Shown here piece after piece: positions 1 to 30,396 of a DNA stretch of 64,000 nt (its first letter is position 1; each line of letters opens with the position of its first letter). The stretch comes from Pseudomonadota bacterium (lineage in GTDB: Bacteria; Pseudomonadota; Alphaproteobacteria; Micavibrionales; UBA2020). A model generated the notes under the pieces. It saw nothing but the letters and a program-made list of their open reading frames with translations. It was not told the DNA's origin and did not search any database. The position numbers and the translations under genes were made by a program. The DNA is taken from the NCBI GenBank assembly GCA_023444705.1, contig JAEXMB010000033.1:581-64580 (forward strand), given 5' to 3'.

Positions 1-1095
1 AACCACCGGGAACGCGCCAGCCTGCGATAAGGTTGAGGACCGCGCGCGCCGCATTCTTGCGCGCCGCATAGGGGCGGCGCTCGATCCAGTTTTGCTGGCC
101 CGCGCTCTTGGCAATGGCGTCTTCGCTGATAGGTGCCGCGCGCGGGCGGCCCATCATGTTATCAGCCATATGCTCGACTGCCTTCAGGTGACGGTCGTCT
201 TTATCGACAGGAATAGTCAGGGTGTTAAAGATACGGCCCGTGACTTGCGTATCAGCGTTGTAGAATTTTGAGTCAGAGGAACCGCAGTTGTTCTGTCCGC
301 CGTTATCTTTGGGGTTACAGAACAGGGCCTGGAATTCCTGTGCATGGACAGCGACAACCGCAGCAGGGCCGCGCGCGGAAGCGGTGCCGCGCCTATTCAG
401 CGCCACACCGTTTGAATCGTTTTGCCAAGCACCGCGCATCGCACGCGAAAAAGCATTAGCGCTGCCAAGGCTACCAGCAGACGTTGCGACGGCGCAGGCT
501 TCTTCGCCGGCGGCGTCGGATTGGGCGATGGCGCTGCGCGCATCCTGCGTCTGGATTTCAAGCGACGCGCGGGTTTGCTGTTCGGCATCGGTGATGGCGG
601 CGATCTGCTGCGCCTGGTCCATGCCAGCGATATTGGCCTGTTCGGTCATCGCCTGCAACGATGGCTTGTAGTTGTAATACCAATAGGTGTCAAACCAGTC
701 GGCGATATCCTGTTCGGCCTGCTCAAGACGGCTGAACACCGTTTGCACCAGCGTGTCGACCGACATGCTGATATAATTTTCAACGACTTCGGTTGATGCG
801 ACCAGCGCCTCGTAATAGGCACTCTCAACCGCTGCCGTCAAAAGCGCGGTCGAACCGGGCACCGTGCAAGGGACAGTATTGACGCCGGCACAGCCGCAGG
901 GGCTTGGCAAGACGGGTTGCAGGGGGGAGCCCGGGATAGGCGGCGTCACACTGTACTGCGCACTGCATGACTGCGTCGATGCCGTCATGCTGTTATAGCC
1001 GACCAGAAAGAAGACAATCACCAGCACAGCCGAGAAAGTCCGGCGCAACAGGCGGCGCGCGGTCAGTGGCGGTTTATATGAAGGGGCTTTTGCCA
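1..1095 (-). CDS. 3'-truncated (window edge) membrane-anchored Cys-motif protein, paralog of 1096..2430; possible T4BSS periplasmic component
   Basis: Absent from the ORF track because it has no stop inside the window. My reverse translation from ATG (complement 1093-1095) stays open to position 1: MAKAPSYKPPLTARRLLRRTFSAVLVIVFFLVGY...QDIADWFDTYWYYNYKPSLQAMTEQAN...FCNPKDNGGQNNCGS. It shares the DWFDT(F/Y)WYYN, TEQAN and C-x-P-x-DN-x-G-x-N-x-C blocks with the upstream 444-aa ORF. Its start abuts that ORF's stop. Confidence 0.7.
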
Positions 1096-2430
1096 TCAGT
1101 CGCTCCCCTGCCCTTTTTCGAGCCCTTTGCCGTCGCGCAGCTCGCGCGCCTCAAGCCCCATTTCCGCCGCTAGCATCAGGGCGTAGCGGTCTATCAACTC
1201 CAGATGATCGTGCATCTGCATAACCTGAAAGGCATTTTGCACCGCCAGTTCGCGGTCTGCGTTGGCGGGGGTGTCGATCTGCTCGACGGAATACTGGCCG
1301 TTGCGGAAGCGCTCGCTCAGCATCGCTTCCATGATTTCCTGATAGGACGGGTTATCCGACAAAAGGTCAGGCGGAATGCCCGCACTGTCGCGGATCGCCG
1401 CGATGAAGGCACCGTTGCTGCCGCTAGGCGCGCGGCGGGCGATTGTGTATTGCAGGGCAGTGTGGATTGTCTGACGTTGTGCGCGCAACTCGTCACGCGC
1501 AAGCGCGGCTTGGATACCCTGAGCTGTATTAAGGCTGGCAGGATTGATGTTGTTGCTGACAAAAGGCTCTGCCACGTTGATCACCAGCGCATCTGCAGCC
1601 GCCTTGCGCTGGGCATCGGTCAGGTCGACGGTATCACGGCTGAAGACAGTCCCCGCAACATCGATGTCGGCATTGACCAGTGCCCCGCCGCCGCTTTGGC
1701 ACGTATTGATACCGTTATTGTCAGCAGGGTCGCAATAAACTGCGCGCACCTGATCCCAACGCTCGGCGATATCAGCCGCGGCACCACGCGCTGCCGTGCT
1801 GCCGCGCGCGCCGCCGCTGCGCGGTGCGGCGTCGGCAGGTGCGGCGCGCGCATAGGCGTCGACGATCGCATTGGCGCGCGCGATACCGCCAACGGCAGTG
1901 GCGGCCATGCACACTTGCGTGCTGGGCGCGGCATTGCGCTCGCTTTCGAATTCAAGTTCACCCATCAGGTGATTGGCGCGCAGCACCTCGGCACCATCGC
2001 GGAAGGTACTCATAGCGGCAGCTTGCATGGAATCCATCACGTTGGCCTGTTCGGTCTGGCCCTGCATTGATGGTTTTTCGTTGTAATACCAGAAGGTGTC
2101 AAACCAGTCGTCAATGTCCATGACGATCTGGCCGAAGCGAATGGTCGCCTGCAGGGCAAAGGCCTCTGCCGCAAGTGCGTATTGCGCATTGATCAGGCCG
2201 GTGGCAACCCCGATCTGCGTGGCCGTCTGCCCCGCAACAACAGCGAAGAGCGCCGATACACTGGTCGGGCCCTGCGCCACGCAAATGCCGCAACTGCAGG
2301 CCTGCGCCTCTGCAGGGCAGGACGTCGCGACACTCATGGTTAGATAGCCAACCGTGATCATCGCCAGAAAAACGGCGACGATGGCGATCTTGCGCCATGA
2401 TCTGCGTAAATAAGTCCCGGCTGTGGTCAT
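1096..2430 (-). CDS. membrane-anchored Cys-motif protein; IcmX-like in size and position, family not confirmed
   Basis: 444-aa ORF with an N-terminal TM (IAIVAVFLAMITVGYLTM), the motif CPAEAQACSCGIC, and DDWFDTFWYYNEKPSMQGQTEQAN plus YCDPADNNGINTCQS. Clear paralog of 1..1095. Same strand and neighbourhood as the dot genes. Confidence 0.75.
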   Translation of the reverse strand: MTTAGTYLRRSWRKIAIVAVFLAMITVGYLTMSVATSCPAEAQACSCGICVAQGPTSVSALFAVVAGQTATQIGVATGLINAQYALAAEAFALQATIRFGQIVMDIDDWFDTFWYYNEKPSMQGQTEQANVMDSMQAAAMSTFRDGAEVLRANHLMGELEFESERNAAPSTQVCMAATAVGGIARANAIVDAYARAAPADAAPRSGGARGSTAARGAAADIAERWDQVRAVYCDPADNNGINTCQSGGGALVNADIDVAGTVFSRDTVDLTDAQRKAAADALVINVAEPFVSNNINPASLNTAQGIQAALARDELRAQRQTIHTALQYTIARRAPSGSNGAFIAAIRDSAGIPPDLLSDNPSYQEIMEAMLSERFRNGQYSVEQIDTPANADRELAVQNAFQVMQMHDHLELIDRYALMLAAEMGLEARELRDGKGLEKGQGSD

Positions 2431-2524
2431 TACACCCCTGAATTCCCTGACATTGGCGTCATATTCAGCCTATCCTGATAGTGTATCATATTTAGTTAAA
2501 ATGTGAGATATTTTCAGAATATTA

Positions 2525-2553
2525 AGGAAAATCAAGGGGCTGAAATCCAGCCC
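2525..2553 (-). terminator. putative rho-independent terminator after the TcpQ-like gene
   Basis: On the minus strand, GGGCTG-GATTT-CAGCCC hairpin (2537-2553) followed by a T-rich tract (CTTGATTTTCC). Confidence 0.4.
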
Positions 2554-2605
2554 TGCCGCCATTTTTTGCAACTGGCGGCGGTCATTCAGCCCGGAAAAGC
2601 GGAAA

Positions 2606-3829
2606 TCAGTAGCCGACTCCGTAAGCCTTGACCACCAGCGTGCGGGCCTGCCCGCCTTGCTGGTGCAGTTGCGCATAAGGGCGCGGCTTGGCATTGGCGA
2701 AGCGGTCCAGCAGTTGCGATGCGGCATCGCTGAAGGTGCCGTCGATGCTCACGCTCTGGCGCAGGCGGTAGTCGTAGTCGATCGACCAGTAAAGATCGAC
2801 ACCCGCGCGGTTGGCCCAGTCCTGCAAAACGTCGCGCAGAGTCATGCCTGCCTCGGCCTGCCAGCTGGCGGCAGGGGCGCTGACCACAGCGCGCGACGAC
2901 ATCGGCGGGCGCACCACAGGGGCTGCCGCGCGTGCCGCCGCTGGTGGTGTCGCGGGTGGCGCCATCGTCAGCGCGATCGGGGAGAGGTCTTCGCCGGGTG
3001 CGGTTGCCAGTTGCTCGTCATTATTAAGCGCGGATGCCGCAACATCGTTTTGCGCGTCGTCCCACTCTGCGGTCATTTGCTCGGCCGCGTTGCGCGGGGG
3101 TGCGCCAATGGTCGCCTCGACCGGCGTTTCCTCGCGCGAGAGCTGCGAGCGGATGCGCGAGATCAGGCCCGCGGGTTTTTTGCGGCGGATGTCAGCCGTT
3201 TCAACTGATGACGGTGCCGCAGGTACTGCGGGCGGTGTTACCTGCGCCGTTTGCAGCGCGGGTGCGCTTGCACCCTGCTCCATCACCATCAGGACGTTGT
3301 CGTCTTGCGTTTCAAAGGTCAGGCCCTTACTCGCCAGCATATCATGCGCGACGTCGCGCCAGGGCTTGCCGCCCTCCCACGATACGCGCTGGCCGAGATC
3401 GACACCCGGTGAAAACGCGAATTGATAACCCGGCGGCGCCACCTGTTGCAACGCGATCACCAGCGGCAGGTCGGTGCCAAAACCGCTGAGCATCCCGTCT
3501 GCCTGCGCAACAGCAAGTGGCGCGGCATCGACAGGCGCGGGTGCGTCGATCGGCACGGCAGTGACGGGAATGGTGGCCTGCCCGGCCGCATCGGGCATCA
3601 TGCCGATGGGCGCAAGGGTGCTGTCGCTCTGGATTGCGCCACCCGATTGGGGTTGCGCCTGCGGAATACCCGCGCCGCGAATTTCAAAGCCGGCATGTGC
3701 CGCCAGCGGCACCAGTACGACAGCCACAGCGACCGAGGCCGCAAGCAGGCGCGGCAGGCAGGGGAGCATTTGGGCGGGGCGGCGTGAGGTCATCGGGCGG
3801 GCCAGTGCTAAGGACGGGTTTATGCGCAT
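2606..3829 (-). CDS. secreted TcpQ/PilL-like domain protein (secretion or pilus outer-membrane accessory class)
   Basis: Signal-like segment LLAASVAVAVVLVPLAAHA. The C-terminus WQAEAGMTLRDVLQDWANRAGVDLYWSIDYDYRL...GTFSDAASQLLDRF resembles the TcpQ/PilL C-terminal domain. A weaker earlier copy is SWEGGKPWRDVAHDMLASKGLTFE. Start is ambiguous (3898, 3829 or 3793). Confidence 0.6.
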   Translation of the reverse strand: MRINPSLALARPMTSRRPAQMLPCLPRLLAASVAVAVVLVPLAAHAGFEIRGAGIPQAQPQSGGAIQSDSTLAPIGMMPDAAGQATIPVTAVPIDAPAPVDAAPLAVAQADGMLSGFGTDLPLVIALQQVAPPGYQFAFSPGVDLGQRVSWEGGKPWRDVAHDMLASKGLTFETQDDNVLMVMEQGASAPALQTAQVTPPAVPAAPSSVETADIRRKKPAGLISRIRSQLSREETPVEATIGAPPRNAAEQMTAEWDDAQNDVAASALNNDEQLATAPGEDLSPIALTMAPPATPPAAARAAAPVVRPPMSSRAVVSAPAASWQAEAGMTLRDVLQDWANRAGVDLYWSIDYDYRLRQSVSIDGTFSDAASQLLDRFANAKPRPYAQLHQQGGQARTLVVKAYGVGY

Positions 3830-3924
3830 GTGATGCCGGATTTCTATGACAGAATCCAGCCGCACAGCGGCTTTGCCGAAAGTACACCCGAAAGGCATGG
3901 AAAATCAATGCGGTTAGAGCGTGC

Positions 3925-3953
3925 TTGACAGGCTTCTTTGATTTTCATATTGT
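3925..3953 (+). promoter_or_regulatory. sigma70-like promoter for the two small plus-strand paralogs
   Basis: TTGACA (3925-3930), a 17-nt spacer, then TATTGT (3948-3953), about 37 nt upstream of the ATG at 3991. Confidence 0.4.
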
Positions 3954-3990
3954 GACTTAATTTTTCAGAATCTACAAAACTGAGCATCCT

Positions 3991-4245
3991 ATGGCCAAAA
4001 GCACAAAAACGACGCTCGACAAAATCGACTGGGACAGCATCGCAACCGAGCTGCTGGCCACATTCAATGCGGCCAATACGTTGCGCACCACTGCCTATGG
4101 CAACGACGACAGACGACACAATGCCGAGCTGGCTGTACAGGCCGCGCTTGCGCTTGCGCAAGTCAGCGCCGAAGCCCGCGCCGTGCGCGAAGAAAAAGAG
4201 CGCGACAACTTCACGATCAGCAAACCCAAAGGGCAGCAGGCATGA
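3991..4245 (+). CDS. small hypothetical protein, tandem paralog A
   Basis: 84 aa. Shares IDWD, AY-x-x-D, an A-rich helix and the C-terminal F-x-(I/L)-SKP-x-G with the next ORF. Confidence 0.6.
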   Translation: MAKSTKTTLDKIDWDSIATELLATFNAANTLRTTAYGNDDRRHNAELAVQAALALAQVSAEARAVREEKERDNFTISKPKGQQA

Positions 4246-4487
4246 GCAACCCCGTAAAATCAGCCAGCGAGATCGACTGGGATAAAATGGCCAAGCGTCT
4301 TGGCCGTGCCTTTGATGATGCGATGGACGAGGCAGAACAGTATGCGTATTCCGATCAGGATTCCTGCGCGCCGCTGATCGCCGCCAGCAAGGCGGCACAA
4401 GCACTGGTCAAAATTTCCGAACGCGCGCAGGCGCAAAAGGAAGCGGCTGAAAAGAGCGGCTTTAAACTCTCCAAGCCCGCAGGCTGA
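4242..4487 (+). CDS. small hypothetical protein, tandem paralog B
   Basis: 81 aa. ATGA start/stop overlap with paralog A. Sequence SEIDWDKMAKRL...AAQALVKISERAQAQKEAAEKSGFKLSKPAG. Confidence 0.6.
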   Translation: MSNPVKSASEIDWDKMAKRLGRAFDDAMDEAEQYAYSDQDSCAPLIAASKAAQALVKISERAQAQKEAAEKSGFKLSKPAG

Positions 4488-4504
4488 TTTCATTTCAGAA
4501 AAGG

Positions 4505-4777
4505 TTAGCGCGAACCGGTGTCTTGCAGACGGCGGCGGCGTGTCCATATCCATGCCGGACGGTACTTGCCGATCAGCCACAGGCGACCAGCACGCAAGGC
4601 AGAGGCGAACGACAGCCCTTTGCGCTCCAGCACCCAAAACGTCAGAAAAACGCCGATCAGCAAAAACAGCGTCCACAGGCGGAAGTGAACCAGCAGCAGG
4701 ATGACGAAAAACCCCGCACGCGCGTCAAAGGCAAAGAAGCGCACGGGCTTCATGGTATTGCGCCAATGCCAGCTCAT
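4505..4777 (-). CDS. icmT: IcmT/TraK-like small inner-membrane T4BSS protein
   Basis: 90 aa. WHWRNTMKPVRFFAFDARAGFFVILLLVHFRLWTLFLL matches my memory of the IcmT pattern (WR..ar..rFF.vDa.a.fp...fLlHir.WT). It lies immediately downstream of dotB. Confidence 0.7.
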   Translation of the reverse strand: MSWHWRNTMKPVRFFAFDARAGFFVILLLVHFRLWTLFLLIGVFLTFWVLERKGLSFASALRAGRLWLIGKYRPAWIWTRRRRLQDTGSR

Positions 4778-4798
4778 GATACTCCCCTTCCCTTGCCG

Positions 4799-6019
4799 TT
4801 AGTTGATTTCAGTGACGACTGCGTCGTCGTCGTCATCAGTGATGCCAAGCGCCGTCGCGGCGGCCTTGGTACCCTGCGCATAAAGAAGATAGTAGCGGTG
4901 TTCGATCAATCCAGCCTCGTAAGCATCGCGCGCGGATTTTTCCATCGTCTTGCCGTACTTGGGCACCATCGTCATCAGCTCGAACGGCCAGCGGTCGGCA
5001 GGCAGGTTGAGCATGCGCTCGCGGATTTCCTCGGTGAAAGGCATGTATTCGCGCAAGGCCACGCGTCCGCCGCCGATTCTCGGCACCAGCGTCTGCGTAA
5101 CGATCAGGCGCACGGTTTCCATCAGCGAATAGGCGCGCTCGGAGCGCTCGGACGGCTCGAACGTCGAGACCATGCGTCGGATGGTGGCGGCCACACCCGT
5201 GGTGTGGACGGTGGCGTAAACCGTGTGGCCGGTCTGCCCCGCTTCGATTGCGGCGTTGATGGTTTCGCGGTCGCGCGCCTCGCCCACCATGATGATCTCG
5301 GGCTTGCGGCGCAGGGCGTTGCGCACACCGGCGGCAAAGGTCGGCAAGTGGCGCGGAATTTCCGTCTGCGCGACCAATGATCTGCGCGAGGTGATGGTGT
5401 CGTAGGTGAATTCGATCGGCGCTTCGTACGTCAGCATCTTGCCGCAGCCGTGCGGGCTTTCGATCAGCATGCGGTTGCCAGCGGCCAGCAAGGTCGACTT
5501 ACCCGAACCGGTCGGCCCCGTCACCAGCACAAGCCCCTGACGCGGTTTCCAGTTTTCGATGATCTCGGGCTCGATGTTGAGCTGCTTCATCGTGGGCGGC
5601 GCCTGCGGCAGGGTACGCATGGTGACCTGCACGCCGTCGCGGCCATCGGCCAGAATCGCCGTCATGTTCACGCGAAAGCGCGTGCGCGTGAAACGATCAA
5701 CCATGATCTCGTAAGACAAGTCGATGTCCGCACCGCCGGCAAGGATGGCCAGTGCCTCCGTACCATAGAGGCGGGTGAGGATCGCCGTCATGTCGGCGGC
5801 GTCAAGCGCGCGGTGCGTGCCCGGATAAAGCGTGCCGTGAATTTCACAATAGACGGCGCGGTTGGATTGAAATGTGATGTCCGATGCGCCGCGCTTGACG
5901 CACCACAGCAGGAACGGGTCAATGTGATGCTCGAGAAAACGGTCCGGCTCGTTCGGCCAGGTTTCCTTGAGGTCATCGATACCCTTCTTGAGAAGGCTTA
6001 CCGGTCTGCCGGCTTCCAT
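4799..6019 (-). CDS. dotB: DotB/TraJ-type secretion ATPase (PilT/VirB11 superfamily)
   Basis: Walker A LVTGPTGSGKSTLL. Asp/His boxes IIMVGEARDRETINAAIEAGQTGHTVYATVHT. Sits in dotD-dotC-dotB order and overlaps dotC by 22 nt. Acidic C-tail DDDDDAVVTEIN. Confidence 0.85.
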   Translation of the reverse strand: MEAGRPVSLLKKGIDDLKETWPNEPDRFLEHHIDPFLLWCVKRGASDITFQSNRAVYCEIHGTLYPGTHRALDAADMTAILTRLYGTEALAILAGGADIDLSYEIMVDRFTRTRFRVNMTAILADGRDGVQVTMRTLPQAPPTMKQLNIEPEIIENWKPRQGLVLVTGPTGSGKSTLLAAGNRMLIESPHGCGKMLTYEAPIEFTYDTITSRRSLVAQTEIPRHLPTFAAGVRNALRRKPEIIMVGEARDRETINAAIEAGQTGHTVYATVHTTGVAATIRRMVSTFEPSERSERAYSLMETVRLIVTQTLVPRIGGGRVALREYMPFTEEIRERMLNLPADRWPFELMTMVPKYGKTMEKSARDAYEAGLIEHRYYLLYAQGTKAAATALGITDDDDDAVVTEIN

Positions 6020-7290
6020 TGCTGCGATCCTGTCAGGAATTCAGACGGGCCGGTGATACGCAGCGCGCGATCGCCCACCCGCATGAGGTTTTTGCCGCCG
6101 GTCACCCCGCGGTCTTCATGCATGGCGTAGGGTGCGGAAATCTTGCCCTCTGCCAGCAGGGTCCGGTAACGCACCATACCGTTATAGTCTGACACCAATT
6201 GGTTAAGATTGGTTTCAAAGGCTTCTTCACCCTGATTGTAGCCCGCTGTCCAGCCCTGCTTGACCCAGCTGTTCCATTCCAGCTGTTCCTTGTCATCCTT
6301 GGGCCACAAGACACGCGGCGGCGGCGTGATGTCGGTTTCGTATTCGGGCATCAGATAGGTGCGCCAGTCGCGCGGCGCGGCGACGATCTTCGCCTGCTTG
6401 TTGATGTCGAGGATCTGGTCGGCAACGGCGGCTTCGTTGCCGTCGTTGGTGATGAGGATATTGTCGAGCGATTCGCGCACGATCGGCGGTTCGATCAACA
6501 GGCCCGACGGCGCGCGCACCAAAAGCGCGCGGAAATTGAACACGCCGTCCATGACCTGTTCGTAATCTTCAAGACGTTCGGCCACCTGATACTGGCGCTT
6601 GGCAAGGCCGCCGCGCGCGCCGTACGACAAGGCCGCCTCGCGCTGGGCATCGCGGCGGATGTCGAGGTTGAGCAGTTCTTCCTCCACTTCCGCATCGGTG
6701 ACGTTATAGGTCGTGCCGTGCGTCTTGTGGACGTCTTGCAGGCGGTCAAGCTCGGGCGGGGTCGGCTCGTCCGTCACGGTCTGGCGCGGATCGACCACAG
6801 TCGCGCGCGCAAAGTTGGTGACGTCGCCGTCGCGCTTGGCCTTGTCGGCCAGCTTGTTCGCCTTGTATTGCGGGCTGTCGGGGTTTTTCAGCAGTGCATT
6901 CATCTCGTCGGATGAAATCTCGTCAGGTTGCTGGCCGGGCAGGACCATGCCGGGCGGATAGTAAAAACTCTGCACGCCCTGCGGCGTGACAAAGCCCTGC
7001 GGCACCATGATCTGGCCCTGCCCGTACTGACCTTGCCCGTACTGGCCTTGCATATAGGGCTGTTGCTGGCCGATCTGCTGGCCATAGCCGTATTGCTGTT
7101 GCGTGCCGCCCGTCGTCGTGCCCGATGACGGCGCGCCAAACATCTGCGCGATGGCGCTGGCGTTTGAATTGGGTTGTTGTTGCGTCGTGGTGGTTGTCGT
7201 CTGCGCATGGGCAGCCGTGTGCAGGGCCATCAGGGCGCCCGCCGCGACAATCATGAATGCTGTGCGTTTAACCGCCGGAAGCAGGCGCAT
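5998..7290 (-). CDS. dotC: DotC/TraI-type T4BSS outer-membrane-complex protein with an N-terminal Thr/Gln/Gly/Tyr low-complexity insert
   Basis: Signal peptide MIVAAGALMALHTAAHA. The conserved block EAALSYGARGGLAKRQYQV...FNFRALLVRAPSGLLIEPPIVRESL...AKIVAAPRDWRTYL fits the DotC family as I recall it. Lies between dotD and dotB. Confidence 0.8.
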   Translation of the reverse strand: MRLLPAVKRTAFMIVAAGALMALHTAAHAQTTTTTTQQQPNSNASAIAQMFGAPSSGTTTGGTQQQYGYGQQIGQQQPYMQGQYGQGQYGQGQIMVPQGFVTPQGVQSFYYPPGMVLPGQQPDEISSDEMNALLKNPDSPQYKANKLADKAKRDGDVTNFARATVVDPRQTVTDEPTPPELDRLQDVHKTHGTTYNVTDAEVEEELLNLDIRRDAQREAALSYGARGGLAKRQYQVAERLEDYEQVMDGVFNFRALLVRAPSGLLIEPPIVRESLDNILITNDGNEAAVADQILDINKQAKIVAAPRDWRTYLMPEYETDITPPPRVLWPKDDKEQLEWNSWVKQGWTAGYNQGEEAFETNLNQLVSDYNGMVRYRTLLAEGKISAPYAMHEDRGVTGGKNLMRVGDRALRITGPSEFLTGSQQWKPADR

Positions 7291-7801
7291 AGTTCAGCTC
7301 GACAACTTTCTGGTCGACATCGACCGAAATATCCGCGCGCGTGCCAGCCTGCAGGCCAACGTCGCGCAGCACCTCAACCACCGATTTCTGCTTGGCGATC
7401 ACATGCACAACCACGGGCGCGGGCGGCACATCGCCGTTGACGCGGAAGCGATAGCCCGCGCGGTCGGCCAGTTTTTGCGTCAGCGGTTCGATCGGGCCGA
7501 CCCACTCGACACTGACGCTGCGGCGCAGTTCCTGCGGTGCGGAGGGCACGGACTGGATGGCGACAGCGGGCGTGCGCGCCTGTTCGACCGACGCCAGCGT
7601 TTGCAGCGCAGCCGACGCGCGGTCGGCGGCGGATGCCAGACGCAGACTGACCGGATCGGGTTCGGCGACCATTTGCTGGTCGACCTTCTGGTTGAAATTC
7701 AGCGGCGCGCAGGCAGCCAGCGTGACGGCGAGCGCGGCGCACGCGACCAGCGCGGCAACGCGGCGGTATGGCAAGAGTGTGACAGCGGTATGTGACGGCA
7801 T
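7268..7801 (-). CDS. dotD: DotD/TraH-type T4BSS lipoprotein
   Basis: Lipobox-like LTLAAC after a hydrophobic stretch. The C-terminal domain VSVEWVGPIEPLTQKLADRAGYRFRVNGDVPPAPVVVHV...VLRDVGLQAGTRADISVDVDQKVVELNY resembles DotD. I chose the internal ATG at 7801 over the ORF-track start at 7906. Confidence 0.8.
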   Translation of the reverse strand: MPSHTAVTLLPYRRVAALVACAALAVTLAACAPLNFNQKVDQQMVAEPDPVSLRLASAADRASAALQTLASVEQARTPAVAIQSVPSAPQELRRSVSVEWVGPIEPLTQKLADRAGYRFRVNGDVPPAPVVVHVIAKQKSVVEVLRDVGLQAGTRADISVDVDQKVVELNYAPASGG

Positions 7802-8008
7802 GACGCCTGCGCTTCCCCTAATTTTTACCCTTGTGCAGGCGCGACGCCGTGCCAAAGGCATTTGGCGTGGCTGGCACCGGTCCCCCGACCGGACATCCCC
7901 ACGCATGAACCTATGTTTTTTAATTTTATGGGTTTACGCCGCCGCAAGCAAGCCTTTCGCGGACATGATGGCGGCAAAAGTCACAGTGTAATCTGGTAAA
8001 TGGAAACT

Positions 8009-8497
8009 TCAGCGCGTTTGCGCGCCCTGCGTCGTGCGGCTGGCGACGGCGGCACTGGCGCGCGCGTGCGCCGCGACAAGGTCGCTTGGCTGGCGCACAA
8101 GGCGGTAGTTCTGCATCGCGCGCAAAACTTTCTCGCGGTACTTGTGGCCGAATTTCGGCGTGGCGGAGTGATACCACGCAATCCCCTGATAAAGACTACC
8201 GGTATCGTTCATCTTTTTACGCAGGATCCACGCACCGACGCCGATGTTGATGCAGGCGTCGTCGCGCACCATCTGCTTGGCGCGGCTTTCCGACACGTTC
8301 CAGTGACGCGCCAGTTCGGGCATCCAGATGGTGTTGATCTGCATGGGGCCAAGGTCGTGCGTGCCGTTGGTGTTGGGCACCGCCTGACCGACGCGCCCGC
8401 CTTCGACATGCAGGATACCGAGAATAACGGGGGCAGGCACAGAATAGGTCTGTGCCGCAGCGAAGATACACATGGCAAGGGCCTGCGCGGTAATCAT
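8009..8497 (-). CDS. lytic transglycosylase (SLT domain; VirB1/TrbN-like specialised muramidase)
   Basis: Motifs LHVEGG (catalytic Glu context), GPMQIN and AWYHS. Signal-like N-terminus. ATGA-coupled to the upstream Dsb-like gene. Confidence 0.8.
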   Translation of the reverse strand: MITAQALAMCIFAAAQTYSVPAPVILGILHVEGGRVGQAVPNTNGTHDLGPMQINTIWMPELARHWNVSESRAKQMVRDDACINIGVGAWILRKKMNDTGSLYQGIAWYHSATPKFGHKYREKVLRAMQNYRLVRQPSDLVAAHARASAAVASRTTQGAQTR

Positions 8498-9429
8498 GGC
8501 GTGGCCTCCGGTTGCGGTGCCGGTGTATCTTCGGCAGGTGCCGAGGGCATTTCAGGCGGCAGCAAATCGGCCAGCAATGCCAGCGTGTTTTTCGGACGTC
8601 CCACCATCGCGGTCACCACGCCGTCAGCGGGGCGGCGGTAGATGGTAAAGGGCGGGCCTTGCAGTTTGTTCGTCGTGGCGAAGGCCGTATTGGCGGCGAT
8701 TTTTTCAAGCGCGCCGGCGGCGATCTTGTCTTTGCCAAGTGCTGCTTCGTCGCCATTGATATAAGCCTGCCATGCCGCAAAAGGATCGCTGACCGACAAA
8801 AGCGCCGCACCGCCGTCGCGGTTGGCATCCGCAGCACCAAAGGGCACCAGGCGGATCTGCATCTTGCCCGCCTTGACCAGAGGGGCCACGTCCATGAACA
8901 TCGCCTTGCAGTGGTCGCAGTTCACGTTCATGAACATGTATATATAAGGCGCATCGTCGTTGCCGACCTTGACCCATGCGGATTTTTCGGTGCCGCTGTA
9001 AACCTGTTCGGCCTTGGACAGCTTGCTGGCATCAGCGCCCGCAATAGCGGATTGATCGCCGCTCAGGCGCTTGCGATAGGCGATCAGCTGCGGGGCCGTC
9101 ATGTTCTGCCCTTGCTGGTCGACCATGATGCCCATGACCATCGTGTTTTCAGGCGTGACATAGACAGTCTTGACCGATTTATCGGCACCGATCAGCACGA
9201 AACCTTCAAGGCTGCCGCTGCGGCCCAGATAGTCGACGATGCCGCCGTTGCGCTCGAAATCGGCGAAGGCAGGGAATTTTTGCGCAAGCGCGGACACTTC
9301 GGCGCCAGCGTCTTGTTGCGCGGGGACAGCCGCAGCCGGTGCCGCCTGTTGCGCCTGTGCAGGCATGACCGCAACCAGCGAAAGCATCGCTGCGGGCAAG
9401 AGGACGGCATAACGTGGCAAAGCGGCCAT
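8494..9429 (-). CDS. periplasmic thiol:disulfide interchange protein (DsbC/DsbG/TrbB-like thioredoxin fold)
   Basis: Signal peptide MAALPRYAVLLPAAMLSLVAVMPAQA. CxxC active site in FMNVNCDHCKAMF. I chose the start at 9429, which has a GGGGGAA upstream. Confidence 0.75.
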   Translation of the reverse strand: MAALPRYAVLLPAAMLSLVAVMPAQAQQAAPAAAVPAQQDAGAEVSALAQKFPAFADFERNGGIVDYLGRSGSLEGFVLIGADKSVKTVYVTPENTMVMGIMVDQQGQNMTAPQLIAYRKRLSGDQSAIAGADASKLSKAEQVYSGTEKSAWVKVGNDDAPYIYMFMNVNCDHCKAMFMDVAPLVKAGKMQIRLVPFGAADANRDGGAALLSVSDPFAAWQAYINGDEAALGKDKIAAGALEKIAANTAFATTNKLQGPPFTIYRRPADGVVTAMVGRPKNTLALLADLLPPEMPSAPAEDTPAPQPEATP

Positions 9430-9667: not shown

Positions 9668-10207
9668 TCACGGGGCCGGCGGCGGCGATTTTTTGTCGCC
9701 AGGTGCCGGTCCGTCGCTGGCGGGCTTTTCGATGCGCTCGGGCGCGCTGACCATATTGAATCGGGGCGCGATCAAGGTGCGGGTTTCGCTCAAGCCTTCC
9801 TCCTGCTGGCGCAGACGGTCGCGCGCGCTGGCGATATCGGGCATTTCCTCCATCACGCGCAGGCGGCATTTGCGCAGCATCTCGATATAAGCTTCGTGGC
9901 GGTAGGGAATAAGCTGGTCGTCGATCTTGTCGTCAAACAACGTGCGCCCCTTGGTATTGGCGACGAAAAGATCGTCTACATGGGGCAAAACATGCGTCAG
10001 CCAGTCGTATTTCTGGTCCTGAATGGCGCGCTTGATGCCTGCGTGCAATAACGGCAGGCCGTCGCCGTTGCGCGCATGGACATCAGCACCCTTGGCGATG
10101 GTCATGTCAAAAAGCTTTTTGTCGCCGTTCTGCACGGCGGCAAACATCTCGCCGGTCATCAGGGCGATTTGCTTTTTCAGGCCTTCTTCGGTGACGGGGC
10201 GGTCCAT
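9668..10207 (-). CDS. small ankyrin-repeat protein (candidate effector)
   Basis: DKKLFDMTIAKGADVHARNGDGLPLLHAGIKRA fits the ANK consensus. Basic/Pro C-tail GDKKSPPPAP. Confidence 0.75.
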   Translation of the reverse strand: MDRPVTEEGLKKQIALMTGEMFAAVQNGDKKLFDMTIAKGADVHARNGDGLPLLHAGIKRAIQDQKYDWLTHVLPHVDDLFVANTKGRTLFDDKIDDQLIPYRHEAYIEMLRKCRLRVMEEMPDIASARDRLRQQEEGLSETRTLIAPRFNMVSAPERIEKPASDGPAPGDKKSPPPAP

Positions 10208-10484: not shown

Positions 10485-11117
10485 ATGAAGGTATCGCAGA
10501 TTTTCAAAGCCAGTGCTGCAGCCGTTGCCATCGGCGGTGCCGGGTATGGCGGCTATGTCGCCGCCGATCATGCGCACCAGTATCTGGCGAAAACCCCGAT
10601 GCCCGCGCTGAGCGCAAGCGCGCGTGACCGCGCCAAGGACTACAGCCTGCGCTTTACCACCGTGCTGGCGCAGCAACAACTGCTCGACAACACCACGGAC
10701 GAGGAAGAAGCCGGCAACACCCTGTTTGAAGCCAAGCGCGAACTGGCGACCGATGCCGTGCTGGACAGCACGCTGAGCGAAGCCGACCTGTCGCGTCTGG
10801 CGCGCGACTTCAACGCCATCAGCGAAGACGACGCCGTGCGCTTTCGCTCCTACGCCTACGACCCGCAAACCATCGCGCGCCGCAACGAATGCCTGCGCGT
10901 CACCCCCGCCACCAACGACAAGCACGGAGCCGACCGCTTTGCCTACGCGCAGCGTGTTGAAACCTGCATGATCGAAATGACCGACCAGACTCCGGCGACC
11001 AATACCATTGCCGCGCGCATAGGCGGCATGATGGGCGGCGGCATGGCTTTCACCTTCCTGCTGGGCTTTTCCGCGCGCCGCCGCATTCACGGCGCCAAGG
11101 CACCCAAGGCCGGTTAA
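10485..11117 (+). CDS. hypothetical protein with N- and C-terminal TM segments
   Basis: GGAG lies 8 nt upstream of the ATG at 10485. Sequence MKVSQIFKASAAAVAIGGAGYGGYV...IGGMMGGGMAFTFLLGF, tail GAKAPKAG. Confidence 0.6.
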   Translation: MKVSQIFKASAAAVAIGGAGYGGYVAADHAHQYLAKTPMPALSASARDRAKDYSLRFTTVLAQQQLLDNTTDEEEAGNTLFEAKRELATDAVLDSTLSEADLSRLARDFNAISEDDAVRFRSYAYDPQTIARRNECLRVTPATNDKHGADRFAYAQRVETCMIEMTDQTPATNTIAARIGGMMGGGMAFTFLLGFSARRRIHGAKAPKAG

Positions 11118-11176
11118 GCGCGCCTTCATTGCGTGTTTGACATCATCACACTCTTCGCAAAGGATCCCGCGCCAAG

Positions 11177-11698
11177 ATGCTGAAATCATCTGTCTCGCTG
11201 CTGCCTGTTCTGTTCGCCGCCTTTTCGGGCGCGCTGGTTACCGTGCAGGCGGGCTATAACGCCCAGCTGGGCAAGATGCTGGGCCATCCGCTGTGGGCGA
11301 CGCTGGCGTCCTTTGTCATCGGGCTGGTCGGCATCGTCGCCATCATGGGCGCGCTGCGCGTACCCGCCCCTGTGCTGGGCGGCCTGACGGGCGCGCCGTG
11401 GTATCTGTGGCTGGGCGGCTTTTTCGGCGCCATCTACGTCACCGCCGCGATTATGTACGCGCCGCAGCTGGGCGCTGCGGTCTTTATGGCCGCCGTGGTC
11501 GTCGGGCAAATGCTGGCGTCGCTGTTGCTGGACCATTACGGGCTTGCAGGATTCAGTGAACGTCCTGTATCACTGATGCGCCTGCTTGGCGCGGCGTTGC
11601 TGGTTGTAGGCTTGCTGTTGCTGCAGGCGCCCGCCAAAAAGGCATCGGGTGCCGCAGCGCCCGTTGTGCCCGCCCAGCAAGAGAACCCATTGCCGTGA
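11177..11698 (+). CDS. DMT-superfamily membrane protein, YdcZ/DUF606-like
   Basis: 173 aa with about 5 TM. GALVTVQAGYNAQLGKMLGHPLWATLASFVIG and GGFFGAIYVTAAIMYAPQLGAA are typical of the family. Confidence 0.75.
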   Translation: MLKSSVSLLPVLFAAFSGALVTVQAGYNAQLGKMLGHPLWATLASFVIGLVGIVAIMGALRVPAPVLGGLTGAPWYLWLGGFFGAIYVTAAIMYAPQLGAAVFMAAVVVGQMLASLLLDHYGLAGFSERPVSLMRLLGAALLVVGLLLLQAPAKKASGAAAPVVPAQQENPLP

Positions 11699-12258
11699 AC
11701 GAACCCCAAACTCCCCGTCAAAGCGCACCCGCAGGACTGATCCAGATCGAGATGGTCGAAACGCTGTCGCCCGCCGATCTCAACGATCTCTGCGACGCAA
11801 CCGATGCTGCCGTAGAAAGCGGCGGCGGCTTTGGCTGGATCACGCCGCCCGCGCGCGAAGTGATGGAGCGTTACTGGAAGGGTGTGATGGTCGTGCCCGA
11901 ACGCCACCTGATCCTCGCACGCCGCGACGAAGTAGTCTGCGGTGCCGTGCAGCTGGTCGAACCCAGCCGCCATAACGAAGCGCAATCGTTTTGCGCCAAT
12001 ATCCTTGCCTGCTTCACAGCGCCGTGGGCGCGCGGACAGGGTGCGGGGCGCAAACTGGTCGAAACGGCAGAGAAGCTTGCGCTTGAAATGGGCTACAAGG
12101 TCGTGCAGGTCGACGTGCGCGAAACACAGCAGCACGCGATTACGCTGTTTGAAAAAACCGGCTATGTGCGCTGGGGCGTGAACCCGGCCTATGCTTTCGT
12201 GCAGGGCCAGATGATCCGCGGCTTTTATTACACCAAGACGCTGGCAGCCGTCGGCTGA
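11695..12258 (+). CDS. GNAT-family N-acetyltransferase
   Basis: Acetyl-CoA motif ARGQGAGRKLVETAEKLALEMGY and a C-terminal FEKTGYVRWG. ATGA-type overlap with the upstream gene. Confidence 0.85.
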   Translation: MNEPQTPRQSAPAGLIQIEMVETLSPADLNDLCDATDAAVESGGGFGWITPPAREVMERYWKGVMVVPERHLILARRDEVVCGAVQLVEPSRHNEAQSFCANILACFTAPWARGQGAGRKLVETAEKLALEMGYKVVQVDVRETQQHAITLFEKTGYVRWGVNPAYAFVQGQMIRGFYYTKTLAAVG

Positions 12259-12277
12259 TTATTTTCTTTGCTGTTTA

Positions 12278-12907
12278 TCAGGGCTTGGGCGGCGCTTTGG
12301 GCGCGGCAGTCTTTGGCGTGGCCTGATCGTCATTGGCGCGCTTGCGGCCAAAAATGTTGCTGAGGCTGATCGACGCAGCTTTGCGTTCAGGCTGTGGCGC
12401 GGATGTAGGCGCAGGCGCTGCCGGTGCAGCGTTGCCAGCCTTTGCCGCACGTACGGCATCGCGGCGCGCACGCCATGCGCTGGCGATTTCTTCCATCTTG
12501 TAAGCGGCGTAGCGCTTGCCGATTTCTTCCTTGAGGACGGGCAGCGTTTCTCCCTGCGCGCGTGCCCATATTTTTTTACCGCGCCATGCGGCAAAACCGC
12601 ACCCTGCGGCCAGCACGCCAATAAGGCCGGCACCGCTGGCCAGCGTCAGTGCGCCGCCAACAGCAAGCGCAATCCCGCCGCCTGCGGACAGCAGCACACC
12701 GCCAATCGCCGCCGCTGCCGCAACACCCGCAGCGCGCACATCGCGTTTGAAGGGGGCCACGGTTTTATACATGTCCTTGAGCGTTGCGATGATCCAGGTA
12801 TCAGGCGGCAGCAACGCTGAATCCGACGCGATGAAGGGCATGACCTTGCGTGCAAGGCGGCGCGAGGGATCAAGCTTGGCTGGCGTTTGCGTCGGCTGGG
12901 TCATCAC
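12278..12907 (-). CDS. Gly/Ala-rich bilobed-hydrophobic membrane protein (Inc-like architecture), hypothetical
   Basis: One roughly 50-aa hydrophobic block, AAGVAAAAAIGGVLLSAGGGIALAVGGALTLASGAGLIGVLAAGCGFAAW, followed by an A/P/K-rich tail ending APKAPPKP. Confidence 0.6.
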   Translation of the reverse strand: MMTQPTQTPAKLDPSRRLARKVMPFIASDSALLPPDTWIIATLKDMYKTVAPFKRDVRAAGVAAAAAIGGVLLSAGGGIALAVGGALTLASGAGLIGVLAAGCGFAAWRGKKIWARAQGETLPVLKEEIGKRYAAYKMEEIASAWRARRDAVRAAKAGNAAPAAPAPTSAPQPERKAASISLSNIFGRKRANDDQATPKTAAPKAPPKP

Positions 12908-12915
12908 ATCAATCC

Positions 12916-13878
12916 TTATTTCTTTTTATTGTCGGGCGCGCACGCTTTGGGCGCGGCGCGATGATCGCTCGGGTTATCGTTGGCGCTGTCGCTGTCGGGT
13001 TTTGCGCCCTGCGCGAAATCCGCGCGCGCGCTAAGCTGGCTGACAGGCGCTTTGCCCGTTTGCGCGGGCGGTGCCATCTCGCGGTTGGCAACCATCGCGG
13101 CGGCGGCTTTTTCCGCACGCGACACACGGTGCCAGCGGATCAGCGATTTGCTGCCGAAGTAAAGCCCGGCACATCCGCTGACGACACCCGCAACGGCCCA
13201 CAGCGCAACGAAAGACACGGCACTGCCGATCGCAACGACAGGCAGAACGGCCAGTTGCGCCGCCAGCACCCACGCACTCATGCCGGTGGTCAGCGCCGCA
13301 CCGCTCAGTGCCGTGGTGCCAAGCATCCATTTTTTCTGTTCGCGGATGAAGCGTTCGGTCACTTGCCAGATGCGTGTCTGCCCGACGGCCTTGACGGCCT
13401 TAAGCTCTGCAATCTTGTTGACGGTGCGATAGAACGGGCGGTCCGATGCCGCGGGTACGGGCGGCGGCGGTACGGACGGATCGGCCGTCTCGCCGTTCTT
13501 CATTGAATCATAAGCGGCGCGCATGCGGCCCAGAATAAAACGTGTGCCGGCAATGATGCCCACGGTTGCAACGCCCGCCACCACGGCAACGCCGGTGATC
13601 ATCGTCGCCGCCAGCATGAAAGGCAGCGTCATCGCATAGGCGCAGGCACCGGCCACCGTCAGCGCCGTCATGGCGGCACCCGAGCGCACCGCCATCATGT
13701 GCAGCCAGAAGGTATGGTCGCGGCTCAGCTCGTTCATGAAGGTATAGATCGTATTGAAGGCGCGCTTGGGCGAACGCAGCGAGGCCAGCAGCGATTTCAG
13801 CCAGCGGCGTTGCACGGCAGAATCGCCCGCAGCGGCTGGGGTCTGGTTTTCCGTTTGTGTTTCAGGCGTTTGCGTCAT
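12916..13878 (-). CDS. Gly/Ala-rich membrane protein with two bilobed hydrophobic blocks, hypothetical
   Basis: Blocks AMTALTVAGACAYAMTLPFMLAATMITGVAVVAGVATVGIIAG and LSGAALTTGMSAWVLAAQLAVLPVVAIGSAVSFVALWAVAGVVSGCAGLYFG. Basic tail APDNKKK. Confidence 0.6.
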   Translation of the reverse strand: MTQTPETQTENQTPAAAGDSAVQRRWLKSLLASLRSPKRAFNTIYTFMNELSRDHTFWLHMMAVRSGAAMTALTVAGACAYAMTLPFMLAATMITGVAVVAGVATVGIIAGTRFILGRMRAAYDSMKNGETADPSVPPPPVPAASDRPFYRTVNKIAELKAVKAVGQTRIWQVTERFIREQKKWMLGTTALSGAALTTGMSAWVLAAQLAVLPVVAIGSAVSFVALWAVAGVVSGCAGLYFGSKSLIRWHRVSRAEKAAAAMVANREMAPPAQTGKAPVSQLSARADFAQGAKPDSDSANDNPSDHRAAPKACAPDNKKK

Positions 13879-15055: not shown

Positions 15056-15331
15056 GCGCGACTCGCCCGCCGCCCCCCGCTTTCCCATACATGAATGCCG
15101 CATTGCGGCAAAAGGCGCTTTGGACGAAAAAACCCATTTTTTGTAATATTGTTTTAATATTTCAATCTGAACGGCCTTAAAATTGCCAAAGTATTAATTT
15201 TTCGGTAATTTTATCTTGTCGAGAATCCTGATCGCCTGTACCTTACGTAAACGATCTGACATCCAAATAACAAAAAAGGCTCCGGCCGTTTCTGGCGGTT
15301 GAGAGGCTTGTTTTCAGGAGGCCACTTTCCC

Positions 15332-21939: not shown

Positions 21940-22425
21940 TTAAAACTTGAAGCCGTCGCCGTTATCCTTGGGCGGCTTGCGCGCGGGCGGTGCCGGCGGC
22001 GTGGGGGGCTTTGGCGGTGCGGGCGGCTGCTTGGGCAGGCCAAAATCCATGCCCGGCAGTTTGGGCAGGCCGGGAATACCGGGCAGGTTGCCCAGCATCG
22101 GCAGCAGCGTTTTCATTTCATCCTGAATGTCGCGCGCCAGGTCAGCCAGCACGCTGGCGACTGCAGGATTGGTCTGCGCTTCGCGCTTGAGCTGCGACAG
22201 CGTCATTTGCAGATCCATGATTTGCGGCAGCATCTTCATCATCATGCGCTTGGGATCGCTGTCCTGATTGCGCGGATCCATTGATTGCGTGATCAGGTTG
22301 TCGATCTTGGTAGCCAGTTTCTTGAAGCTGCGTTGCGCGCTGCCGCTGTCGGCCTCGGCTGCGCGGTTGAAAGCCTCGCGGATACGCTCAACGGCTTTGA
22401 GGATTTCTTCGGGATCAAAACTCAT
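21940..22425 (-). CDS. hypothetical protein with a polyproline C-terminal region
   Basis: 161 aa. Helical N-part, then GIPGLPKLPGMDFGLPKQPPAPPKPPTPPAPPARKPPKDNGDGFKF. Confidence 0.6.
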   Translation of the reverse strand: MSFDPEEILKAVERIREAFNRAAEADSGSAQRSFKKLATKIDNLITQSMDPRNQDSDPKRMMMKMLPQIMDLQMTLSQLKREAQTNPAVASVLADLARDIQDEMKTLLPMLGNLPGIPGLPKLPGMDFGLPKQPPAPPKPPTPPAPPARKPPKDNGDGFKF

Positions 22426-24601: not shown

Positions 24602-24783
24602 GCCGGCACCAGTTCAAGCGCGGCCAGTTGCTGCCACAGGCCTGCGTTGTCCAGACGGCACACCATGACAGGTCCGTCATCTGCGGTTTCAACGATAACG
24701 CTATCGGGATCTTCAGTCGCGGCGACTGAAACGACTGTCAGCGTGCGCGCAAGGGCATTGGGATATGTGTAAATGATTTGCAT
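24598..24783 (-). CDS. hypothetical phage protein (possible fiber assembly factor)
   Basis: 61 aa, coupled on both sides by overlapping start and stop codons. Confidence 0.4.
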   Translation of the reverse strand: MQIIYTYPNALARTLTVVSVAATEDPDSVIVETADDGPVMVCRLDNAGLWQQLAALELVPA

Positions 24784-25772
24784 TATTGTGAATACTCCTC
24801 GACAACCATTTGCCAGCGTGCGATGCCGCCAAACATGCGCCCGGCACCATTGCTGTTGGGACGCGACCAGCCCGATCCGGCGCCGACGCGCAGTTTGTAG
24901 GTTATGGGTGAAAGACTGCCCGGAACATGCTCTGTCAGGATAGACAGGCCGTTCGTATAGTTCGTATCCGGCGCATAGACAGTAGATGCCGCGAATGCGC
25001 TGGACTCGCCATGTACGACAACAGAGCAGGAAAAATTGGTGGCCAGTCCGCAGGCGCCAAAACCCGCGGCCCTGATAACCATTTTACTGGTCGCAGTCAT
25101 TGGCGTGATGCTGACACTCATGATCTCCGTACCTTCGGTCGAAGTCGGGATCGTATCATCGAACGGCAAAGTCGTCGCCAGAAGCGCATAGCTGCTATAT
25201 GTCGCGGTTTGCGTCTGCAAAACGGCCGGCGTTTGTGCCTGCGATGGATTGAGAAGTTTGAAGTTCGCACCGTCGTAACACAGCAGATAGATGCCGTTTG
25301 CGCGCAAAGCGCCCGCAATGGCATTTCCACCGTCAGGCATCTTGACTGCCACTGCGGATAAACCGTCAATGGCCAGTGTGCAGGCACCGGTATTGGTGTG
25401 CGCTGCCTTCAGCAAAACCGTCAGGCCCGCCGTATAGCTACTGACCGTGGGCGACAACGCCGCCGCATAGGCGTTAAGCGACCCGCTGTCGTCATGCAAA
25501 TGCAGGCCGCGCGACGCCTGCACCCCCGCATAGGGAAGCACGGTATTCGATCCGGCATTGATCTGTGACAGACAAATCCAGTCAACGCCGTCATACATCT
25601 TGAGCAACCACGGGGTCGCCGCATCGTCAAGCCAAAGCGTGCCGGCCTGCGCGTATGTAGGGGCCGACGGCCCCTTGTGATGGGTCAGCAAGGCCTGCTT
25701 GCCGTCGTTGTCTTCCTGGCGATAGGTCAGGCCGCTTTTATTCGGGCCGATCAGGGGGGGTGCCTGCGACAT
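24783..25772 (-). CDS. tail fiber / receptor-binding protein
   Basis: 329 aa directly after the host-specificity protein. The N-terminal GTLWLDDAATPWLLKMYDGVDWI motif is typical of fiber N-termini. Ser/Thr/Gly/Ala-rich beta-type C-half. Confidence 0.55.
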   Translation of the reverse strand: MSQAPPLIGPNKSGLTYRQEDNDGKQALLTHHKGPSAPTYAQAGTLWLDDAATPWLLKMYDGVDWICLSQINAGSNTVLPYAGVQASRGLHLHDDSGSLNAYAAALSPTVSSYTAGLTVLLKAAHTNTGACTLAIDGLSAVAVKMPDGGNAIAGALRANGIYLLCYDGANFKLLNPSQAQTPAVLQTQTATYSSYALLATTLPFDDTIPTSTEGTEIMSVSITPMTATSKMVIRAAGFGACGLATNFSCSVVVHGESSAFAASTVYAPDTNYTNGLSILTEHVPGSLSPITYKLRVGAGSGWSRPNSNGAGRMFGGIARWQMVVEEYSQ

Positions 25773-25796
25773 TGTATTCTCCTCTTTTTTTGAAAA

Positions 25797-30306: not shown

Positions 30307-30340
30307 GACGGATGCTCGCTGTGTGCAAAAGTGAAACGCG

Positions 30341-30375: not shown

Positions 30376-30396
30376 GGGGAAGAAACTTGAAGCGTA

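Follow-up and report, generated by a model that had tools for sequence, protein, structure and literature searches.

A conserved chromosomal cluster of Dot/Icm-like type IVB secretion genes in Micavibrionales

A dotD-dotC-dotB-icmT cluster and its companions

The stretch of DNA analysed here, called the window throughout, is 64,000 nucleotides of contig JAEXMB010000033.1 from a Micavibrionales genome (assembly GCA_023444705.1), and positions 1-9429 of it carry a row of genes for a Dot/Icm-like type IVB secretion system (T4BSS). A preliminary description, made by reading the DNA by eye, had proposed a module of this kind in an alphaproteobacterial genome. The proposal was borne out when profile hidden Markov models were run on positions 1-9429: DotD, DotC, DotB and IcmT match T4BSS families, and the E-values of the cluster's gene matches are far beyond chance.

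The cluster lies on the minus strand. Its first gene (8494-9429, in a reading frame extendable to 9504) encodes a DsbG/DsbC-like periplasmic thiol:disulfide isomerase (NCBIfam DsbG, 9e-28), whose CDHC motif and signal peptide were read from the translation and whose match to Pfam Thioredoxin_4 is weak. Next comes a specialised lytic transglycosylase (SLT) of TrbN/IagB-like type (8009-8497; Pfam SLT 2.7e-8, NCBIfam TrbN 1.7e-28), and the profile matches thus confirm the two proteins, a CxxC DsbC-like one and a transglycosylase, that had been read ahead of dotD. The outer-membrane lipoprotein DotD/TraH (7268-7801, frame open to 7906) matches PF16816 at 5.8e-35 and NF033882 at 4.3e-33, has the lipobox LAAC and is 40% identical to DotD of L. 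adelaidensis. The core-complex protein DotC/TraI (5998-7290) matches PF16932 at 8.7e-71 and the solved Legionella DotC structure 6x62 at 5.2e-33, and has an N-terminal linker rich in Gln and Gly. After the hexameric secretion ATPase DotB/TraJ (4799-6019) comes the small inner-membrane protein IcmT/TraK (4505-4777), which matches NF038220 at 6.8e-25 with 87 bits against a cut-off of 40, and also PF28014 (IcmT_2).

DotB has the Walker A motif GPTGSGKST. The suggestion that the row is a set of misassigned type IV pilus genes (a PilT plus unrelated lipoproteins) was weighed here. In its favour, PilT-family models do match DotB, at 213 bits, and a protein with a TcpQ/PilL domain is encoded nearby. 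Against this, the best of the NCBIfam models is DotB itself (TIGR02524, 2.7e-112, 375 bits), with TraJ at 229 bits; the structure of L. pneumophila DotB, 6geb, is matched at 2.6e-100 with 339 bits and PilT with 148; DotD, DotC and IcmT match T4BSS-specific families at 1e-25 to 1e-71; and there is no pilin, PilC-type platform or secretin gene in the window. For both DotC and DotB the best match in the Protein Data Bank (PDB) is the solved Legionella protein, with PilT far behind. These family scores rule out a type IV pilus identity, to which we give practically no weight. Compared directly, DotB is 46% identical to Legionella DotB (338 bits) and 30.6% identical to TraJ of IncI1 plasmids (184 bits).

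Beyond icmT, the cluster continues with an exported protein that has a C-terminal TcpQ/PilL domain (2606-3898; PF10671, 1.4e-15), with a terminator-like hairpin at 2553-2537 by its gene, and then with two paralogs of a family that we call PARA. PARA-1 (1096-2430, 444 aa) is predicted to be all-alpha, with an N-terminal membrane helix and six conserved Cys; PARA-2 (1-1096) is cut by the window edge and is 491 aa long in the contig's gene table. A TcpQ/PilL-like protein and two Cys-containing paralogs had been described after icmT, and both the PF10671 match and the gene table agree with that. Two further paralogs, of 430 and 405 aa, lie just outside the window and bring the contig's total to four. 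Between icmT and the PilL-like gene stand two small genes on the plus strand (3991-4487; 84 and 81 aa), near a promoter-like site at 3925-3953. Their products each end in a ..F-x-[LI]-SKPxG tail, are species-specific and not kept in other loci, and without these tails have no BLASTP similarity between them. An Arg-rich open reading frame of 186 aa at 3844-4404 on the minus strand is antisense to two called genes and was treated as spurious.

The arrangement had been described as a co-directional, translationally overlapping series, dotD-dotC-dotB-icmT. The order holds, as do the overlaps of DotD with DotC (23 nt) and of DotC with DotB (22 nt), and DsbG and SLT overlap by 4 nt; DotB and IcmT are separated by a 21-nt gap. 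With two opposite-strand genes between icmT and the PilL-like gene, the series as a whole is not strictly co-directional.

To the right of the window lie thymidine kinase, gyrB, recF and dnaN, with a ClpB-like gene also in the context; to the left, past the two outer PARA paralogs, is RNase J. The presence of gyrB, recF and dnaN past the right edge places the cluster on a chromosome, near the replication origin. The window is part of a metagenomic contig of 98 kb, and a 213-kb contig at NCBI encodes the same proteins as well. The window contains no tRNA, no Rfam match and no near plasmid match, and the GC content of the cluster is that of the surrounding DNA. The preliminary description had seen no relaxase, and this holds more widely: relaxase, coupling-protein, integrase and replication/partition families are all absent from the Pfam matches of the genes in the 64 kb and in the flanks fetched past its ends (about 15 kb).

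Conservation across Micavibrionales and the rest of the machine

With DotB as the query against one genome per GTDB species, 61 loci were found, all in metagenome-assembled genomes of Micavibrio or alphaproteobacterial type, with DotB identities of 62-92%. The genomes are labelled Micavibrio, Alphaproteobacteria, Rhodospirillaceae or, after an older NCBI placement, Bdellovibrionales/Pseudobdellovibrionaceae. Wherever the fetched DNA spans the cluster, its genes stand in the order DsbG-SLT-DotD-DotC-DotB-IcmT; in most cases the PilL-like gene and three to five PARA paralogs come next. The DsbG-like gene adjoins SLT in 42 related loci, and SLT is 48-79% identical across the related loci. In the closest clade, defined by DotB at least 82% identical and a GC content of 54-64%, the housekeeping flanks GNAT and RNase J are kept too. 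There DotB is 82-92% identical and RNase J 53-62%, so that the secretion ATPase is better kept than its housekeeping neighbour, which points to strong purifying selection. Taken together, the conserved order, the conserved flanks and the conservation of DotB describe an old, vertically inherited, selected chromosomal system and not a mobile element. The expectation that such a system would be unusual for its lineage has to be dropped, since this single query met a conserved, vertically inherited cluster in 61 GTDB species genomes. The Dot/Icm-like system is an ancestral, order-wide and hardly studied feature of Micavibrionales, not a plasmid leftover.

Little of this is in the literature. A relaxase-less type IV system (pT4SSi) in seven marine Micavibrionales is mentioned in one sentence of the TXSScan survey (PMC9418006), and beyond that survey no paper was found that links Micavibrio with Dot/Icm. 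The genome paper on strain ARL-13 reported no evidence of a type III or type IV system. Some proteins of the relatives are already annotated at NCBI as "DotH [Micavibrio aeruginosavorus]" (DotH/IcmK). The system is best classed as a new type IVB family member that has scarcely been studied and has additions particular to its lineage; it had been seen in passing, and standard models detect it. As a side observation on cluster layout, L028 (6028-7041) and 19 other loci of the distant clade have a conserved protein of 310-350 aa, family F9, between the DsbG-like gene and SLT; it has no family match and occurs in Micavibrio proper and not in the window's clade.

These results bear on whether the cluster is a conjugative DNA-transfer module of the mating-pair-formation type I (MPF_I, IncI-like) class, belonging to an integrated element or to a plasmid inserted long ago, and still transferring DNA. 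Its gene order is traH-I-J-K of MPF_I plasmids; a DsbC-like protein, SLT and a PilL-like protein are typical conjugation companions, and in some relatives a full R64-type thin-pilus cluster adjoins; and the nearest outgroup in a DotB tree is plasmid-borne. What speaks against it is the lack of a relaxase, type IV coupling protein, integrase, rep/par genes or flanking tRNA in the 64 kb and flanks, a GC content that matches the surroundings, the same chromosomal place and flanks across the clade, the occurrence of the cluster in all 61 species genomes found, and the classing of the Micavibrionales systems as relaxase-less (PMC9418006). We regard a module that still transfers DNA as improbable. 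An origin of the stretch as a plasmid or an integrative and conjugative element was likewise set aside, given the lack of near plasmid matches and mobility genes and the conserved chromosomal position.

The thin-pilus genes were followed through the relatives. In L043, L034 and L062 the PilL-like gene is followed by the secretin PilN, PilO and PilP; in L043 (12966-20196) the ATPase PilQ, the platform PilR and the pilin PilS could also be resolved, and homologues of PilR and PilS occur in L062. In most genomes, the window's included, the PilL-like gene alone remains, and PilN, PilO, PilP, PilR and PilS of L043 used as tblastn queries found no match in the window, where an R64-type thin-pilus set is thus missing. 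The PilL-like orthologue in L076 has a faint STN match as well.

The PARA family has 113 members in 35 loci. They are 400-500 aa long, begin with a membrane helix or signal and share six conserved Cys. Their genes are repeated in tandem, three to five at a time; in the window's clade they adjoin dotB-icmT-pilL, and in at least four other loci (L072, L073, L076, L078) they adjoin icmL. No Pfam, NCBIfam or PDB match was found, and a homologue search returned 22 orthologues without names. An AlphaFold2 model is all helical and of low confidence, with a predicted local distance difference test (pLDDT) score of 56; Foldseek found nothing below E=2 for it, a null that is uninformative at this pLDDT. 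Against L. adelaidensis IcmX, BLASTP gave E>1 and hhalign a probability of 27% over 28 columns at a comparable position. The constant linkage of the family and the dedicated DsbG-like enzyme suggest that the PARA proteins are exported structural parts of the machine.

Further components of the system are found in relatives. In Micavibrio proper icmL/K/E/G either adjoin the cluster or stand apart as a second locus, with housekeeping genes on both sides (guanylate kinase ... Tim44/SecB), and in more distant Micavibrionales this second locus has the order icmL-K-E-G-C-D-J-B. The relatives' IcmL scores 202 bits, above the NCBIfam equivalog cut-off of 175; their IcmK matches PF12293 at 6.6e-75; IcmE matches DotG/TraO, and the match of IcmG is weak. 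After IcmG come a TraQ-like IcmC, a small open reading frame and IcmJ/DotN (4.5e-25). One related locus, L077, which is alphaproteobacterial but not placed in a lineage, encodes a DotA/TraY-family protein (253 bits). In the high-GC relative L078 (14034-18257), the TraQ/IcmC-like gene and the small open reading frame next to it are tandemly duplicated within the icmL-B locus (526 + 129 aa, twice).

The preliminary description had argued that the remaining core genes must lie outside the window. For the relatives this holds, with icmL/K/E/G/C/D/J/B at a separate locus and DotA in L077; for the window's own genome we infer a complete core set from these relatives and from the strong conservation of DotB, DotC, DotD and IcmT. 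The neighbourhood in which dotA, icmX, icmV and icmW had been expected did not yield them: L. adelaidensis DotA gave no tblastn match in the loci examined, and IcmW, IcmV and IcmX of the same species gave none in the window or any locus examined. No IcmV/IcmX, DotK or IcmQ/R was detected in the DNA examined, and no IcmB/DotO in the window or its flanks. Amino-acid composition was tried as a pointer to a high-GC IcmK of the window's own clade and proved non-discriminating.

It is here that a different account of the cluster, as a stand-alone remnant or a re-used module, has to be considered. DotB, DotC, DotD and IcmT would then form some other envelope machine, pilus-like or adhesive, with the PilL-like and PARA proteins and without an IcmB/K/E/G core. 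Such a machine would fit with a second locus not having been found for the closest clade, with PARA and PilL-like genes that stay with dotB-icmT there (elsewhere PARA stands beside icmL), and with the place of DotB among PilT-like ATPases. The absence of the second locus from that clade is not backed by a genome scan, however, the icmL-B locus is present in every lineage of which a larger context was seen, and the strong conservation of DotC, DotD and IcmT argues for an intact partner set. To our knowledge, these three proteins have no role outside T4BSSs. We consider a remnant unlikely.

Candidate substrates and neighbouring genes

Among the window's genes, at least nine encode ankyrin or Sel1 proteins. 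The ankyrin proteins all lack an N-terminal signal peptide; the only Sel1 protein seems to have one. Nearest to the cluster is a small ankyrin-like protein on the minus strand (9668-10207), with a weak match to Pfam Ank_4. It belongs to F1, a family of tandem ankyrin proteins encoded ahead of the cluster in the closest clade, and is 29-34% identical to F1 members in related loci. Further along the minus strand, four consecutive genes at 42806-48547 encode ankyrin-repeat proteins of 625, 370, 413 and 479 aa (Pfam Ank; the 625-aa one is ankyrin-like by BLAST), three of them with Lys/Pro-rich C-terminal tails. Three more consecutive minus-strand genes at 58612-62191 encode proteins of 312, 398 and 483 aa ending in ..DKFKL, ..CFKLAPAGGSNGA and ..GQFKL; the middle one is weakly ankyrin, the 483-aa one has a weak ankyrin-repeat BLAST match, and with their tails removed the three show otherwise no homology to other tail carriers. 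Both groups are candidate substrates.

Two types of tail can be described. The first, ..G-x-F-[KRTN]-[LFI], stands at or near the C-terminus and is sometimes followed by SKPxG; the second is short and Lys/Pro-rich. A large number of proteins, otherwise unrelated and lacking signal peptides, carry one or other tail; in the window they lie at 3991-4487, 21940-22425, 42806-48547, 51435-51959, 56393-57403 and 58612-62191, and outside it in L004 (15559-19326) and upstream of the DsbG gene in the sister loci L007-L026. Non-ankyrin carriers share no mutual BLASTP homology once the tails are removed. Measured against internal windows of the same proteins as background, the tails are enriched (9/69 against 1.9%, and 17/53 against 4%), figures that are indicative only, as the motifs were defined post hoc. 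In sister genomes, the ankyrin family directly upstream of the DsbG gene ends in ..KK.GGGF[KRTNSE]L in 38 of its 62 members. Judged from the sequences, a G-x-F-[KR]-[LF] or Lys/Pro tail may serve as a translocation signal. In Legionella RalF, a hydrophobic residue at position -3 matters for Dot/Icm export.

The many eukaryote-like reading frames of the window had been taken as a sign of an effector-translocating system. The window is indeed rich in ankyrin and Sel1 proteins, but this is no proof of a eukaryotic target, and cultured Micavibrio prey on bacteria. Ankyrin proteins are not in themselves a sign that the target is a eukaryote; one of Bdellovibrio acts as a self-protection factor.

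Several other genes of the window were recorded along the way. At 10485-13878, just upstream of the cluster, three membrane-helix-rich proteins (210, 208 and 320 aa), whose C-termini are Lys/Pro tails, flank a DMT transporter and a GNAT gene; they are not kept in other loci. A ClpB-like double-AAA+ protein of 884-895 aa with the tail ..AAGPKPG is encoded on the plus strand at 15299-17986. It has no Clp_N domain match, in the L007 orthologue about 270 aa of unrelated sequence form the N-terminal region instead, and members of this family (F12) lie near the cluster in 12 sister loci; it is not obviously a housekeeping ClpB. Amid the ankyrin genes, on the minus strand at 52129-54560, the genes of a secreted trypsin-like protease (481 aa) and an FHA-domain protein (329 aa) form a translationally coupled pair. 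A block at about 24783-41347 resembles a prophage or gene transfer agent, with a Pgp3-C-domain protein, a 1388-aa GpJ-like tip attachment protein, DUF1833, an HK97-type capsid, an S78 protease, a portal and a large terminase, and no integrase was seen in it. A gene transfer agent was not retained as the preferred reading of its capsid, portal and terminase genes, since a lambda-like prophage is no less likely in view of the GpJ-like tail protein of 1388 aa.

A probable protein-translocating system and its known counterparts

Altogether, positions 1-9429 are best read as the outer-membrane and ATPase module of a chromosomal, vertically inherited, protein-translocating Dot/Icm-like T4BSS of Micavibrionales, a reading to which we give roughly two chances in three. 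The preliminary description had preferred an effector-translocating system to a conjugative one, and this remains the best reading, with no transfer genes locally and a fixed chromosomal position that argues against a mobile element. That proteins are what is moved, that the tails mark them, and that the recipient is a bacterial prey cell or a eukaryote, we infer.

In such a machine, DotC and DotD would nucleate the outer-membrane core, and SLT would open the cell wall for assembly. The DsbG-like enzyme would form or repair the disulfides of exported parts, with the six-Cys PARA proteins as its obvious clients. DotB, working with an IcmB/IcmL/K/E/G/C/D/J module from the second locus, would power assembly or the loading of substrates on the cytoplasmic side. 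The assembled machine would most likely move proteins, not DNA, into a contacted cell, and its candidate substrates would be the window's numerous ankyrin/Sel1 and unknown proteins that lack a signal peptide and carry a C-terminal G-x-F-[KR]-[LF] or Lys/Pro tail.

A number of results weigh against this reading. Some concern the parts of the machine. The icmL/K/E/G genes gave no tblastn match in the window or flanks, and the icmL/K/E/G/B locus of the window's own clade was not reached, the IcmK look-ups having landed in other Micavibrionales. Neither DotA nor a DotL-type coupling protein was found for that clade, and none is in the window or flanks; in the examined loci no DotL/DotM or IcmS/IcmW was seen, with no DotL/DotM query run. 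At the icmB position the relatives have an open reading frame of 995-1003 aa with a marginal TraC match (E 0.002) and no PDB match. Others concern affinity. The 375 bits of DotB fall below the TIGR02524 equivalog cut-off of 463. In a small, quick neighbour-joining tree of DotB, the Micavibrionales are monophyletic (79%), and their sister is the system of the Bosea megaplasmid pANAM02 (100% bootstrap), followed by Legionella plus Piscirickettsia (60%). The order dotD-C-B-icmT is that of conjugative MPF_I plasmids generally; dotD-dotC-dotB had been called a hallmark of Legionella/Coxiella region I as well as of IncI traH-I-J, but with icmT the order is the plasmid traH-I-J-K and not specifically a Legionella one, since Legionella has dotD-C-B beside dotA-icmV-W-X and keeps icmT elsewhere. 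As for the tails, their p-values are inflated by a motif defined after looking at the data, and in the sister loci the motif is confined to one paralogous family. The Bosea placement is also a hint that the Micavibrionales and Legionellales systems were domesticated separately.

Effector-translocating Dot/Icm has been treated as a hallmark of intracellular gammaproteobacteria, namely Legionellales, Piscirickettsia and Fangia (reviewed in PMC11338181). The window and its relatives, with a relaxase-less chromosomal Dot/Icm-like machine across a Micavibrio-type order, contradict this gammaproteobacteria-only view, and they would provide another example, possibly an independent one, of a conjugation-type machine converted to protein injection. 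Cultured Micavibrio are obligate epibiotic predators of Gram-negative bacteria, placed by phylogenomics in Alphaproteobacteria (PMC3189940). How these "leeching" predators breach and drain their prey becomes directly testable in a culturable organism, by way of a translocator, candidate substrates and a candidate signal. The key question is what the Micavibrionales system injects, and whether into bacterial prey or a eukaryote. A more specific and rather doubtful proposal is that it is a contact-dependent injector into bacterial prey, with tail-marked proteins as its cargo, domesticated from an alphaproteobacterial MPF_I plasmid independently of Legionellales, and with the PARA proteins as new extracellular or periplasmic parts. 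If true, this would give the type IVB family its first known case of action against bacteria.

Compared with known systems, the Micavibrionales cluster shares with Legionella Dot/Icm the proteins DotD, DotC, DotB and IcmT, a chromosomal setting with no relaxase nearby, the icmL-K-E-G-C-D-J-B order of its relatives, a DotB that is nearest by score, and many ankyrin/Sel1 proteins around the cluster. It differs in its host, which is of Micavibrio type with cultured relatives that prey on bacteria, whereas the Legionella system belongs to intracellular gammaproteobacteria. It also differs in the plasmid-like position of icmT after dotB, in the added DsbG-like, SLT, PilL/TcpQ-like and PARA proteins, and in a DotB that is below the equivalog cut-off and outside the Legionellales group in the quick tree.

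With the IncI1 plasmids (R64/ColIb-P9; Tra/Trb plus the PilL-V pilus), the cluster has in common the traH-traI-traJ-traK order, the DsbC-like and PilL-type companions and, in the few relatives named above, PilN/O/P beside it. The differences are that TraJ and the window's DotB share only about 31% identity, and that the window is without a relaxase (NikB), oriT proteins, a coupling protein or a plasmid or integrative-element backbone and is chromosomally fixed across the order. The MPF_I system of the Bosea sp. ANAM02 megaplasmid pANAM02 has the same order of DotD/TraH, TraI, ATPase and IcmT, and its DotB groups with that of Micavibrionales; unlike the cluster described here it is plasmid-borne and followed by ParM/StbA, its DotB is 41% identical, and it has no DsbG-SLT prefix and no PARA genes within the 31 kb inspected.

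Finally, the bacteria-killing type IVA X-T4SS of Xanthomonas and Lysobacter, compared by function only, would be a functional analogue if the Micavibrionales system injects proteins into bacterial prey on contact. The X-T4SS recognises its substrates by a C-terminal signal, though a different one, the XVIPCD domain of about 120 aa; the architecture differs too, the X-T4SS being of the VirB/D4 type.

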